Positions 2,610 to 53,638 are shown, numbered from the whole stretch's first letter. The stretch is 58,019 nt of DNA, filler included, from Sluysia triapertura (GCA_046118255.1; 4 parts of 4 records of this genome joined end to end with filler, not necessarily neighbours in it); one strand, 5' to 3'. The notes: generated by a model from the sequence alone, not told the origin. Translations and numbers: made by a program.

Positions 2610-3827
2610 TGTTAATAATTTTAAATGACTTTCTAAATTATAATTTTACTTTGAAAATTTTATGTACCTACTTGATGTGATTACTCCTCCAATCAGAAAG
2701 CGTAAAAATCCATGAACAGTACAACACTGATTGGACGACTAATATTAAAAATTAAAATTAGAGTAATTGAGTGATGAGCCACCATCAGTGCTGACATGGA
2801 TTTATAAACAGTAATCAACAATGTCAGTAATGGTGATGGTAGATACTGATTTGGATATTATGTAAAATTAATAAAGTTTAATATTAATAATAACAGTGAT
2901 GTTATTATTATTAATATTAAGTAAATACAAGGTATTTAAAAATACATAAATTCTTTCTAAATTTTACACGATCTTTCTTCACTTTTCTTTATATTTCTTG
3001 ACAGATTTTGAATCTAAAATTAAAAATGATTGAATTGAGTCTAATAACAATAATAATAAGAGAAACGATGTTATAGTTACTATTGTTATTAAACTGCATG
3101 AAATCTTGAATTCTTTAAAAACTGTACATGATCTTACTTGAAATCCTTTTAGTTTTCTAAACATATTCCAAAACTAAACATGTATTTAAAACTAAAGATC
3201 TTTAAGTAAAGGTTGGTTTAAGTGATTTTACATATATAATTGTCGTTTCAAGATAGCAGTTCTTATGTTATTCAGTAAAATGTAGAACGTTAGAATGAAT
3301 TTTTAGATTGTGATTAATGTTTTTGACTGAAAGTAATATTTGAATATTGGAAGATTGTGACCAAAAGATACATTGAGAAGAGTGTGGTTTAGTGGATGTG
3401 AAAAAGATAAATTATAGTCCAACTCTTATTATGTTCGAAAGGTGATTGTACAATGTTGCTAATGTGATTTGTTCTCTTTCTATTTTTAAGTGGTATAGTC
3501 TTTTGTGCTTTCGGGGATTATATGATGACAAATATTGAATTTAAAATGTTGTAATTGATTCGAAGGTGTCGAGTGGATACTTTCGAATGTGGTTGTAGTT
3601 TGATGGTTATGAATGTCGAGTAAAATTTTTTGATGAATCTATTGATGTAAATTGATGGTATTGGATGTAAATGTAGTTTGTATATTATGAGATTGTGGAT
3701 ATGAATTGACTTTGGCATGTAAACTGTTGTGGTGAGTGTAGAGAAGGTAAATATGTGAATGTTAAAATGTTAAAGGATTTTTATAAAATTTAATAATAGT
3801 GAAGGTTGACCACCACAGACTCCATAC
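1232..3827 (-). mobile_element. Double-hairpin cargo cassette, copy 1 (complete module plus decayed cargo ORF)
   Basis: Terminal motif GTGAAGGTTGACCACCACAGACTCCATAC 3799-3827; G/T-rich (+) body about 2980-3790, homologous to 52950-53610 and (reverse) 32300-32840; motif B 2941-2980; hairpin 1 2779-2797/2821-2840; hairpin 2 TCCAATCAG 2688-2696 / CTGATTGGA 2727-2735; cargo ATG at 2609. Confidence 0.7.
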
Positions 3828-4380
3828 TCGAATTAGAGTTAACTATATTTAAAATTTTATAATTCACCGTAAATTATCATTACATATTTATTATCTTGGC
3901 CTGGTTACACGACTAAATAGTAGATTGATTGTCGTACAATTTGAAGAGATATACGTTTCACTGTTTACCTAAATAATTTTAAATTTCATACATATTATAT
4001 AATGTTTATTTATCATTTTCTTTAAAATAAATAAATAATAAATGATAAACATCTCTTTTAATAATTGTCTTAGACAACCAAAAATAAAAAGTGTCTTCGT
4101 ATTTTTTACAAATTGTTTTACTTATCGAAATAAATATTGATAAATTTAATTGATTTAGACAATTCATTGTGAATCTACAAAGTTTATAAAATTGAATTTC
4201 GAATCGAATTACTTACACTGTTATTGGAATTATACTTCTGTATATCTCCAAATATCTGTATTAACAACAGACGGAGTTCAGCATAAATCCAATTTTCAAA
4301 ATGCACAAATAAATAAATTAAATAATTTAAGTAAGACATATTTATTTAATTTTTATATAATTATTGAAAGGAATGATCAA

Positions 4381-4470
4381 TTATTATTATTATTATTATT
4401 ATTATTATTATTATTATTATTATTATTATTATTATGATTATTATTATTATTGTTGTTATTGTTGTTGTTA
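4381..4470. repeat. (TTA)n/(TTG)n microsatellite
   Basis: Direct reading. Similar tracts at about 5380-5420, 10600-10645, 13795-13865, 16882-16948, 18343-18400, 29772-29815, 38565-38612. Confidence 0.95.
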
Positions 4471-49639: not shown

Positions 49640-50083
49640 TGTTTGATGCCATAAATTTGCATTAAAATCTCCTCTGCAGCAAGATTTCCCATAGCTTTTG
49701 AAGCTTCATGTATTGTAGAATCGATTTGCTTTTGATGTTTTAATACGAATGGGCGTATAAAAACATAATATATTTTAACCGAACCATTCCAACTAGTAGG
49801 AAACATTAAATATAGTAGAAATGCACATTTTAATAAAGTATCCAATGGGATCCAAAACAATAAAACACCAATAAAATTTTCCAATAAAGAAAATGTTGCA
49901 TAAACCACTCAATAAGTTAACCATTCAGTATTATCATCTTTTTCTTTTGTTACGATAGCTTTAATGCTGCAATAAGCTGGATATAAAAACTCTATGAAGT
50001 TGGCTAATAATAAGATAAATAATATTACATAACATTAAACCACCAACAAGATATATACGATCAACTCCAGAAAATTTTGACAT
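49627..50083 (-). pseudogene. REEP5: Intronless REEP5/6 (DP1/Yop1/HVA22 family) pseudogene
   Basis: MSKFSGVDRIYLVGG..., then after a frameshift near 50005 [41 protein letters not shown]...WIP...LKCAFLLYLMFPTSWNGSVKIY..FIRPFVLKHQ. The conserved Trp is TGA at 49909-49911; no introns. Confidence 0.88.
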
Positions 50084-51444
50084 GTTAAAAATTAAAAAGT
50101 GAGTACCAAAAATTCTACAATGCCAATTTTTCACCTCGTCCAATCAGAGTGTTCTAAGTATTAATTGTTTCATATTTTGATACATCTACTCTGATTGGGC
50201 GACGTTTCGTAATAGAGGAAAGACAGCTGGCGATCGACCAACAGCAGTGCTGACAGCTCAATGTTAATGTGAAATGGGCTGTCAGCACTGGTAGTGGTAG
50301 CAACCAGTGTTATCAGCTATTTTTAATTTAATTTATTTTAATTTTATTTACATTTAGGTACCTGGAAAAATGGCGATAAATCTAATAATGATAATAATAA
50401 TAACAATAATAAAAATGGTAAAGTTATTGTTATTATTATTATAAAAATAAAAATATAAACGCATAAATCTTATAAAAGCTTTTACATGAACTTTCTTTCT
50501 ATGCTTTATACTTCTAACATAAAATAAAAGTAAAAACAAAGAAATGTACTGGTTACTAAATGTATAATGTATGATCGTTAAATGTTGCTTCACAGTATGT
50601 TAATGAATATCTTTAAAGTTATCTGAATTTTATTTTGAAAATGTAAAATTGATTGAAGTTGTTAGTGAATTTAAGAATGTTGAAATAGTTTATTGAAATT
50701 TATTAGAGGGTTTATAGTTTGAAAACAAGATTTATGCATTAGAATTGATAGTTTAAAATATTTATTAAAAGATTGAAATATATTTGAGCTTTATTGATGA
50801 TTGCAAAATAAGTTTTAATGTTTATTATGGTGTTGTTGTGAATATTTGATTTTGCTGTATGTGTATATATGAAATGGTTTAAAGTTGATATGGTTGCTTA
50901 AGGATTTAGGTGTAGTTGACCTATGTTTCTAAGGTAATTGTTAACATTGTTTGCATGGTATTATGTTTGTGATTTGTGAAGTTTGTGTTGTGATTGTGAT
51001 TTATTTGATAAAGTATTTAGTGAATAAATGTTGTGGATTGTTTGAGTTGAGTGTAGAAGTTTGTTATATTAGAGATGATTAGAATAAAGTTGATTTGTTG
51101 GTATATATAAGGTAGTGAGGTGTTATGATCGTAAAATGTTGTTTTATGAGGTTTGTGATGTTGTGATTCTGAATTTAAAAGATATGACTGTTAGGGAAAT
51201 TGTATTTTGATGAACCTTGATTTATAGTTGTGATATTTAGGATTTTAATTGGGTTTAAATTTGGATTATAAATGTTGACCACTACAGACCACTACATATA
51301 CAAATTTAAATTATTTACAATCTAAAGATATTTATTTTTATTCTCTACATATACAACGTAATGAAATGATAATTAATAATTTTCAAAGTTTTGTATAATG
51401 TTACATTTAGTTCTGATAATTTCTTTACTGCAACTGGCTGTACC

Positions 51445-53638
51445 TCAGTAGGCTTCACTCTGGAATGATAATCTAAAAACATTAGAAAATAAAAATAGAG
51501 ATTTAGATAAACAAAATAAAATTTTACTATAAGTATCGTTGACTTTGTTCTGATAAAACTTGATAATCTTTAATCTTTCTGTAACACAAGGTATATCAGT
51601 ATGGAAAGCTTTTACTCGGCAATGAATACGTGTTTCAAATTTGGAATTTGTTGGTAACGTAATTAAGTAGTAAATGGTATCGTGAAAACAAGCATCAATG
51701 ATAAAATTTTGAACAAAATTAGCCAAGAGAATCGGAATACTTCGAATATCAACTATATCGATGACTTTATTATGTCGAAACCTTTTGCTCGATCTAACTG
51801 AATAAATCGAATCATGTAAATTTTTAGGGATTACACCCTTATAAATCATATATTTAATTGGAACCAATATAGACTCTGGCTTATTAAGTTTAGAATCTTC
51901 AATTACTAAAAATACTGGTGTTGCTAAACTGAGCTCTTTGAAAATTGTCGATAATGCGATGAGATATCTATCAAACGTTTTATTTGTAGTGGATACATTA
52001 CCAGATATTTTTGTGATCTATCGTTAATTGTATTCATTAATTTAATTTTTTCAATACTATTAAAGGTTTTGATCTATAACATAGGGTTATGCATAACTCT
52101 GAAATATTACTTGATAATGAGTATGACGAATTAACAGCAATGAAATAGATAATCTTTGGTTGTCGCCAATGTTCATTTACTAATGTCGACGCAATCATAA
52201 ATTCATCAATTTTATTCGGATAGGATATTATTAATAATTTCAATGTTATATAATCTTTAGAGAAGCAAACCGATAGATTACTGTGGTAGGACTAACAATT
52301 TGAGATTGATCATAGAGCAATTTTGATATTTGACTGGCTGTCATCAGGATCCTCTTTTTACTAAAATGAGAAAATTCAATTCCTAATCTTAACGATGGCG
52401 GTTTTTCATAAAAAATATCGCAATCACTTCCTTGAAATGAACGAGGAGCGCAAGCTAGTAATTCATTATTTGTTGAATATGGATAATTTGTGAATTGCAT
52501 TTCTGACTTAGACTTCAATATTTGATCTCCATAGTTAGATTGAAACATTTTAATTACAAAAAAATACTCAAAATGTGTGAGTATCTCTAATCATTAAAAA
52601 GATTTATTAAATAATTGTTGTTTTATTTTTAGAAATTTTCTGTTTAGTTTATGACCTGTGGTTAGTCATCCAATTAGGATTCTCTAGAGTATAGTTTAAT
52701 GAACTTCGTTCTGATTGGATGACAGTTATTAGGATAGAGCCTCAACAAATCATCAATGATCAGTGTTGACACAGTACTGATAACCGTGATGAAAAACGTC
52801 AACACTAGTCATGGTAGTAACAATTTTTACCGAGTTAAATCAAATTAATAAAATTTAAAGTAATAATAATAACAATAATATTATTATTAATATTATTCTT
52901 ATGTAAAAATATTAAAATGCATAAACTCTGTATTGTTGATTCTACACGATCTTCCTATTGTTTTCCTTAAATTTCTCAACATATTTAAAATTAATTGAAA
53001 TAGAGAATGATAAAATTAAATGCAATAAATTTAAGATGTGTTCGGAACTTAAGTTTCTGAGTTTAATTGCTTTAAATGAATTGATAAGTGCAGTTAACGT
53101 TTAAAGATATGATAATTGATTTAAGTCGTGAGATGAAATAAAGAATGTTAGAATGAGTTCTTAGATGTTGATTAAAGTCATAATTGAGAACATTTAAGTA
53201 TTGTAAGATTGTGGATAAAAGATCTTTTGAGAAGATTATGGTTTGGTGAATGTAAAAGGGCAACTACAATACAACTCTTGGTATATTTAAAATATTATTG
53301 TGCAGTGTTTATGATATTTGTTTATTTGTTGTTTTTATTGTTGTTGTCATTTAAGTTGCTAGTGGTGATGTTGTGTAAAATGAAGAATTCGAAAGTATTG
53401 AATGGATAATCTCGAATGTATTTGTTTGGTTATTATGAATGTTGAGTAACACGTTTTTGGTGGATTAGTTAGTGCAATTGGTAATATTGGGTGAAATTGT
53501 GGGCATGAATTAGTTTTAGAAGGTAAACTATTTTAGTAGGTATATAAGAGACAACCGTATGAATGTTAGAGTGTAAAAAAATTTAGTTTTTTAATAAAAT
53601 TTTAATGGCTGTGAAGGTTGGTCACCATACACCTCTAT
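51445..53638 (-). mobile_element. Double-hairpin cargo cassette, copy 8 (tandem with copy 7); fragmented cargo 51445-52548
   Basis: Terminal motif GTGAAGGTTGGTCACCATACACCTCTAT 53611-53638; body homologous to copy 1; motif B 52915-52956; IR ATGATCAGTGTTGAC 52756-52770 / GTCAACACTAGTCAT 52798-52812; IR GTCATCCAATTAG 52665-52677 / CTGATTGGATGAC 52711-52723; cargo ATG 52548 with pieces 52246-52548, 52037-52243, 51445-51867. Confidence 0.75.

Follow-up and report, generated by a model that had tools for sequence, protein, structure and literature searches.

The box bound by the transcription factor NF-Y is CCAAT. According to the literature, this box can have either orientation, stands some 40-100 bp ahead of start sites and is frequent in long terminal repeats (LTRs; PMC3730095). 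LTR-mediated retrocopy chimeras, known from animals and from maize Bs1, carry partial, intron-free coding pieces (Tan et al. 2016, PMC5131818); the DINE-1/HINE non-autonomous Helentrons are non-coding dispersed repeats in which inverted repeats and a microsatellite lie close to one end (PMC4067079); and the CERP2/CELE2 sequences of Caenorhabditis, which derive from miniature inverted-repeat transposable elements (MITEs), provide oriented m1m2 motif pairs that serve as germline promoters (PMC9757741). Template switching, in turn, homogenises inverted repeats with arms of at least 7 bp and spacers of up to 70 (PMC8604942), and can instantly mimic compensatory change (PMC8794818). Here we describe seven inverted CCAAT pairs, termed hairpin 2, in a stretch of 58,019 nucleotides from Sluysia triapertura (GCA_046118255.1; the window, from whose first letter all positions are counted). 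We propose, tentatively and at slightly less than an even chance, that hairpin 2 is a predicted twin promoter for NF-Y, borne by a mobile unit that captures genes, and that template switching homogenises its arms.

A CCAAY...RTTGG inverted pair is present at all seven places at which the original prediction had located one (copies 1 to 7, in order of position; Table 1), and both boxes are intact in six of them. The exception is copy 4, at 33058, where the proposed double change from CCAATCA to CCAACCA was confirmed, leaving CCAAC in both arms; an intact ATTGG lies just outside this pair, at 33054. CCAATC...GATTGG pairs 25-55 nt apart were seen five times, compared to a mean of 0.00 and a maximum of 1 in 300 local shuffles, and everted CCAAT pairs are absent from the window. 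A covariance model built from the seven copies yielded no eighth pair in the window, its next match having an E-value of 0.019 and lacking CCAAT. The arms had been described as complementary within each copy, which is perfectly true for five of the seven, but not at 33058 and 52665. Similarly, the spacer of 30-37 nt looks near-constant because it was measured between arm ends, whereas the box-to-box spans form two groups, with 46, 46, 46 and 49 nt in one and 57, 59 and 60 nt in the other. The spacers are unrelated, as claimed, in 20 of 21 comparisons, but those at 5660 and 33058 are related (uncorrected p = 0.007); these two copies are oriented opposite to the other five. A lone box without a partner is found at 31362-31373, within another CA-rich block, and shares its outer flank with copy 7. 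In copies 6 and 7 only, a splice-donor-like GTGAGT stands just outside the pair on the GT-rich strand (50099-50104 and 52577-52582, plus strand), and the hairpins could therefore be intronic in these copies.

All statistics on the inverted pairs rest on the seven copies of the window. When arms were swapped between copies, the within-copy match was reached in 4 of 5040 permutations by local alignment and in 3 of 5040 by perfect stem length; these measures came to 2/720 and 3/720 with copy 4 left out, and two swap measures to 4/120 and 2/120 for the five copies that flank homology suffices to define. When independent arms were simulated on star, Yule and coalescent trees, a stem excess as large as that seen arose 0, 0 and 1 times in 3000 runs. 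Judged by these swaps and simulations, the arms co-change beyond independent drift, so that the claim of covariation extending past the CCAAT sequence itself holds modestly. Outside the 8-nt core the effect is small: fixed columns outside CCAATCAG gave weaker values (373/5040 overall, 48/120 for the five flank-defined copies), with 8/5040 for the outer five columns, a zone chosen after looking, and 2966/5040 for the inner seven, and the simulated P outside the core was 0.025-0.043. The arms track each other to a modest degree, on the strength of about five double changes, some of them common to subfamilies. The further step from covariation to a conserved stem-loop is unsupported, as CCAAY alone is Watson-Crick paired in every copy and the perfect stem varies from copy to copy, with 0-5 bp on the outer side and 5-14 bp on the inner side of the box start. 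The two alternatives that had been offered, arm conversion within a copy and a promoter role, fit better than a stem-loop, given the frames ahead of the pair and the clustered extra boxes.

The near-invariant letters of the pair are those of the NF-Y box only, and the arms are equally conserved (left-left 13.9, right-right 14.2 of 25). Within 150 nt, nine extra unpaired CCAAT boxes were counted, compared to 4.0 expected (p = 0.02), among them two sets 31 nt apart; copy 5 has extra boxes at 41407 and 41438. The loop interiors pair no better than shuffles in five of the seven copies. The pairs resemble NF-Y promoters, including NF-Y-bound LTRs such as LTR12 and MLT1, in their CCAAT core with a CAG flank, in the use of both orientations and of several boxes, in their position upstream of coding starts and in being repeat-borne; however, the boxes here face each other between copy-specific complementary flanks, and NF-Y binding is a prediction from sequence (PMC3730095). 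TGACA-type motifs accompany CCAAT also in the DECA-CCAAT composite bound by TALE and NF-Y, but there the known spacing is 10-11 bp, whereas in the present module TGAC is directly adjacent to the box or forms part of hairpin 1, at a distance of 40-60 nt (bioRxiv 10.64898/2026.02.16.706105).

In five of the seven copies, an ATG frame of at least 80 residues that reads away from the surrounding repeat starts 80-289 nt from the pair, and in a further copy (copy 6) a broken REEP5 piece begins 57 nt from it; on the arm side, ATG frames of this length occur within 320 nt in none of the seven (background, 7%). These frames, which we refer to as cargo, are unrelated to each other. Host-gene pieces, from otoferlin, ARHGAP1 and REEP5, are present in three of the seven cargos, and the other four are orphan; a CCCH finger is clear in copy 2 only. 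The ARHGAP1 BCH piece of copy 3 matches PDB 6r3v_A (E 1.2e-5) and Pfam CRAL_TRIO_2 (E 2.2e-5), and the REEP5/DP1 piece of copy 6 matches Pfam TB2_DP1_HVA22 (E 5.3e-11 and 9.4e-5) and a REEP5-like sequence at 55%. For the 548-codon frame of copy 3, no full-length relative was found among proteins of 301-959 residues, and the open reading frame (ORF) of copy 5 gave no usable Atlas match, which tests its orphan status weakly. The vertebrate orthologues of the captured genes contain introns. No intron-sized gaps are seen in the otoferlin, ARHGAP1 and REEP5 pieces, which points to capture through RNA. The copies that share a 7-mer at the far end of their cargo (3, 5 and 6) are the three long-span copies, and this shared motif ties copy 5 to the family. 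A row of minus-strand orphan frames at 7635-9560, behind a GT-rich block without hairpins, converges on the cargo of copy 2.

With their partial, intron-free coding pieces, a chimeric cargo (otoferlin plus CCCH finger) and apparent re-amplification, the units are reminiscent of LTR-mediated retrocopies, although here many different cargos stand under one promoter-like head (PMC5131818). Direct repeats flanking the cargo were not found in 49 arm-versus-distal comparisons (best z 2.9), nor did a profile search detect a copy of the arm behind the cargos; one cargo lies between copies 6 and 7, and the similarity of these two is 47%. On the cargo strand, two of three copies have TGT at the far end, and a primer-binding site, polypurine tract or target duplication could not be shown, primer site and duplication being judged by eye. 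As no flanking repeat pair was found, we do not file the module as an LTR element. A likeness of the hairpin 1 end to an initiator-tRNA primer site was dropped, since the preceding CA is missing in most copies. A link between CCAAT palindromes and Crypton or Kolobok elements is a further possibility.

The original prediction was silent both on these gene pieces and on the repeat to which the pairs belong. Self-comparison, alignment and profile search delineate a dispersed repeat of about 1.1 kb, in which 40-60 nt separate the CCAAT pair from a second inverted repeat (hairpin 1); after these come an (AAT)n-like run, then a conserved core, and an arm that on one strand is rich in GT, with strong G-over-C skew. 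In five copies, the pair forms the inner edge of the repeat. All parts are present in copies 1, 2, 4, 6 and 7, while copy 3 has hairpin 1 and (AAT)n without detectable arm homology, and copy 5 consists of the pair alone, with neither hairpin 1 nor arm found by self-comparison or profile search. An eighth family copy retains the arm and a hairpin 1 remnant without the pair; other inverted repeats occur in it at 11225-11420, among them a short palindrome (TGTCA/TGACA) and a long-range repeat of 15 bp. The repeat arms are 47-72% alike between copies, and an (AAT)n-like run follows hairpin 1 in all seven sequences aligned. Hairpin 1 shows the same within-copy arm excess (2/720 swaps), its arms being rewritten wholesale and copy-specifically in copies 2 and 3. 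An end motif is common to three copies (1, 6 and 7), followed by G, G and C, respectively, and by no TT flank; two contigs of sequencing run X1 depart from the window sequence at 51286, exactly at this motif, which marks the far end of the repeat there. As a transposon-derived oriented motif pair near genes, hairpin 2 is comparable to CERP2/CELE2, but those elements combine two different HIM-17-bound motifs serving resident genes, whereas here one mirrored CCAAT faces captured pieces (PMC9757741). Also in contrast to CERP2/CELE2, no long terminal inverted repeat was found around any copy by self-comparison.

Depth in X1, which may be the assembly's own sample, covers 47000-55650 only (copies 6 and 7) and is summed depth, not copy number: it amounts to 599-1620 in bins of hairpins and cargo and to 4,428-55,318 in bins of the arm, compared to 24-65 in most unique bins and to 11.6 and 16.7 for two single-copy contigs. 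Read loosely, this suggests that hairpins and cargo exist in tens of copies and the arm in thousands. X1 contigs over 48734-52779 carry many substitutions and small indels over both cargos, indicating that related copies differ from those of the window.

Table 1. Inverted CCAAT pairs, associated repeat parts and cargo in the window.
Feature	Position	Strand	Remarks
Copy 1, cargo	2343..2609	-	88-residue orphan ATG frame, 80 nt from pair; broken frames beyond
Copy 1, CCAAT pair	2688..2735	+	9-bp perfect arms, 30-nt spacer
Copy 1, hairpin 1	2779..2839	+	TGACA/TGTCA arms
Copy 1, non-coding arm	2937..3817	+	conserved core, then GT-rich on plus strand; ends in shared end motif 3805-3817
Copy 2, arm	4853..5307	-	element reversed
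Copy 2, hairpin 1	5480..5544	-	arms unlike other copies, yet 15/17 bp complementary
Copy 2, CCAAT pair	5660-5711	-	9-bp perfect arms, 34-nt spacer; 5660..5717 with extra CCAAT box at 5713
Copy 2, cargo: otoferlin C2A-like piece	5973..6599	+	PDB 3l9b_A E 2.3e-11; Pfam C2 E 0.0034
Copy 2, cargo: Unkempt-type CCCH zinc-finger piece	6714..6926	+	Pfam zf-CCCH_UNK E 0.0011, below curated cut-off
Eighth family copy	10647..11290	-	arm and hairpin 1 remnant, no CCAAT pair; 80% to copy 2 over 301 nt
Copy 3, cargo	11450..13342	-	81-residue frame, then 548-codon stop-free frame with ARHGAP1 BCH (CRAL-TRIO-like) piece
7-mer at cargo far end, copies 3, 5, 6	11560..11566; also 39752-39758, 48793-48799	+ (11560..11566)	3 seen, 0.49 expected; post hoc observation
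Two extra unpaired CCAAT boxes	13450..13485	+	31 nt apart, in short tandem repeat
Copy 3, CCAAT pair	13557..13621	+	14-bp perfect arms, 37-nt spacer
Copy 3, hairpin 1	13675..13739	+	11-bp perfect arms, then (AAT)n
Copy 4, arm	32205..32846	-	element reversed
Copy 4, hairpin 1	32972..33022	-	decayed; folding z -0.8
Copy 4, inverted pair	33058..33113	-	CCAAC in both arms; 7-bp perfect run, predicted 12-mer pairs 10/12
Copy 4, cargo	33289..34511	+	broken orphan frames
Copy 5, cargo	39816..41117	-	433-residue orphan ORF, 165 nt from pair
Copy 5, CCAAT pair	41282..41341	+	14-bp perfect arms, 32-nt spacer, interior paired
Copy 6, cargo	48704..50083	-	broken intron-free REEP5/DP1 piece (about 49630-50083), then 333-codon orphan frame
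Copy 6, CCAAT pair	50140..50198	+	11-bp perfect arms, 37-nt spacer
Copy 6, hairpin 1	50237..50298	+	13-bp perfect arms
Copy 6, arm	50444..51286	+	very deep cover in X1
Copy 7, cargo	51445..52548	-	orphan; 100-residue ATG frame 122 nt from box, then 190-codon frame
Copy 7, CCAAT pair	52665..52723	+	13-mer pairs 12/13; 10-bp perfect run, three G·T mismatches inward
Copy 7, hairpin 1	52757..52811	+	
Copy 7, arm	52902..53629	+	68% to copy 1; ends in shared end motif 53617-53629

In the mechanism we favour, the head-to-head CCAAT boxes would serve, as double-stranded DNA, as a promoter of the NF-Y type for the adjoining frame, and the bound protein would hold the CCAAT core constant. If one arm occasionally acted as template for its partner, in DNA replication or reverse transcription, private changes would spread over tracts of varying length, including even the box-breaking one at 33058. 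A bound protein and sporadic arm copying could together account for the constant box, the wandering stem ends, the free loops and the symmetric loss at 33058. Published template switches would explain copy-specific symmetric changes in arms of 7-16 bp, but they favour short spacers, as seen in the template-switched repeats of yeast (PMC8604942), whereas the loops here measure 30-40 nt and show no spacer inversion (PMC8604942, PMC8794818). This difference in spacer length weighs against our proposal, as do several further points. The search for spacer inversion gave a best p of 0.067, the fit of the two span groups to about 4 and 5 helical turns is suggestive but not significant (p = 0.09; range 0.08-0.11), and the interiors of copies 5 and 6 are in fact paired (matched by 0/500 and 14/500 shuffles). 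Moreover, CCAAC in both arms at 33058 breaks both boxes, so that copy 4 would have to be dead or reliant on the outer box at 33054. The remaining adverse points concern base changes and G·U pairs: the five double changes found in the consensus stem of 13 bp comprise transitions only, both intermediates at the position beside the box are U·G when read on the GT-rich strand, which is what stepwise compensation in an RNA would give, and within contiguous stems G·U pairs number 6 versus 2 in favour of that strand.

These latter points form the core of an alternative that we consider unlikely, namely that selection acts on both hairpins as RNA structures of the GT-rich strand, which is antisense to the cargo, in the form of a microRNA-like pair or of a packaging or processing signal in the RNA of the element. 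In size, the hairpins (56-70 nt) would be suitable, and pre-microRNA-like pairing comprises 22-24 paired positions in copies 5, 6 and 7, while it is shorter or unstable in copies 1, 2, 3 and 4. The GT-rich strand folds better in six of eight modules, its consensus energy is -16.2 kcal/mol compared to -12.7 for the complement, and the box is lost from both arms of copy 4. However, the interiors are unpaired in most copies, copies 1 and 4 fold near shuffle level (9/200 and 66/200 shuffles), and in fixed columns no clear G·U strand bias is seen (7 versus 5, p = 0.77). The arms are without seed-like asymmetry, Rfam returned no family at cut-off but one weak match of MIR1887 shape in copy 6 (E 0.21, 27 bits versus a cut-off of 90), and the near-invariant letters belong to a known DNA box. 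We would give no better prospects to a combined scenario, in which a hitherto undescribed mobile unit captures many host mRNA pieces and the same 50-60 bases constitute both a twin NF-Y promoter and a structure-selected RNA or single-stranded DNA hairpin, the pieces being switched on and copied tens of times.

It is improbable, in our estimate, that the hairpins act in single-stranded or cruciform DNA as an origin or end signal, either of a rolling-circle element of the Helentron/HINE type or of a cut-and-paste element. The layout, with inverted repeats followed by a microsatellite at one end of an abundant non-coding repeat, resembles that of DINE-1/HINE (PMC4067079); folded as DNA, seven of the eight modules score z -2.3 to -6.3 on the GT-rich strand, and the G-over-C skew of the arm would be in keeping with such a role. 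Hairpins and cargo, however, fall in the same range of X1 depth, so that the hairpins look internal to the amplified unit rather than terminal. The far end has no clear subterminal repeat, and no TT in three of three copies, as judged by eye; its match to the outer arm, also assessed by eye and with the near boundary undefined, is loose in copies 7 and 1 and absent in copy 6. Compared to DINE-1/HINE, the loops are large, gene cargo is apparently amplified together with the hairpins, and clear matches to the 12-15-bp subterminal inverted repeats at both ends of those elements were not seen (PMC4067079). The lack of intron-sized gaps in the cargo also argues against a DNA-based route, and among 42 frames scanned we found no Rep, helicase or transposase.

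Just as improbable is a scenario in which nothing actively maintains the pairing, and two protein boxes, a few subfamily differences passed on by descent and a choice of copies guided by the hairpins together mimic covariation. In its favour are the weak values of fixed columns outside the core, and the fact that for some arms the partner of another copy is an equal or better match than the arm's own partner. The formal pair count points in the same direction in part: it yielded 8 double-change cells compared to 4.9 in shuffles (20/500), but 6 pairs compared to 4.2 (83/500) and a score of 36/500 were not significant, and two other measures gave 65/500 and 439/500. In addition, copies 3 and 5 owe their inclusion mainly to the hairpins, and the eighth family copy lacks the pair. 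On the other hand, simulated independent arms almost never reach the stem excess, the copies defined by their flanks retain the within-copy match, and hairpin 1 shows it as well. A viral origin, finally, is unsupported by pattern scans of viral and metagenome stretches, in which the bare pair occurred in at least 121 viral-contig stretches and the pair with a second motif in 14 metagenome and 9 viral stretches, since none of the 144 loci resembled the window beyond short AT-rich matches (20 of them scoring at most 24.9 bits with the covariance model).

The window DNA is of animal origin. Its base composition is 25% GC with sparse frames, and it contains a split PP2C (PPM1A/B) gene at 24994-26210 (plus strand) with about 60% identity to many animal PPM1A/B proteins, the closest named relative in one protein search being from the flatworm Macrostomum lignano; the covariance-model scan of the window found no CCAAT pair ahead of this gene. 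A Pfam scan revealed relics of endonucleases from long interspersed nuclear elements (LINEs), and decayed LINE pieces lie as inverted pairs at 17925-23064, one of them with an endonuclease domain. A MITE-like unit at 23195-24680 has a core of about 700 nt between inverted repeats of about 400 nt that are 86% alike. A direct repeat (95%) at 35939-36134 and 38634-38824 holds one frame with a possible Tc1/mariner transposase motif, and a 117-residue ORF at 15601-15954 (minus strand), without Pfam match at E 0.05, has two Cys/His clusters reminiscent of GTSF1/Asterix CHHC fingers. A tRNA search of the window found none. Runs of N around a 12-base spacer with stops in all frames (16949-17048, 29816-29915 and 41999-42098) mark the window as a scaffold of four pieces.

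No look-alike stretches were found in the other genomes scanned. Two unrelated, animal-looking metagenome contigs (L123:512-627 and L134:105-217) carry inverted CCAATCAG pairs with extended arms of their own, so the design may recur in animal repeats. A published description of the module was not found at the level of titles and abstract openings, though repeat libraries may hold the family; the main text of PMC11410931 does not mention CCAAT or NF-Y, and the supplement of PMC3840308 contained one unrelated match in the four files searched. While each ingredient is known, the combination appears to be new. If the arms were under structural selection, the module would be a rare example in which one sequence is both a transcription-factor site and a signal for replication or packaging, a reading that many genomic copies would make directly testable. 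If, instead, the promoter reading is true, the repeat would supply captured gene pieces with a ready promoter and multiply them, opening a route to new chimeric genes, and the hairpin would serve as a caution that covariation between the arms of a repeat does not necessarily imply a conserved fold.

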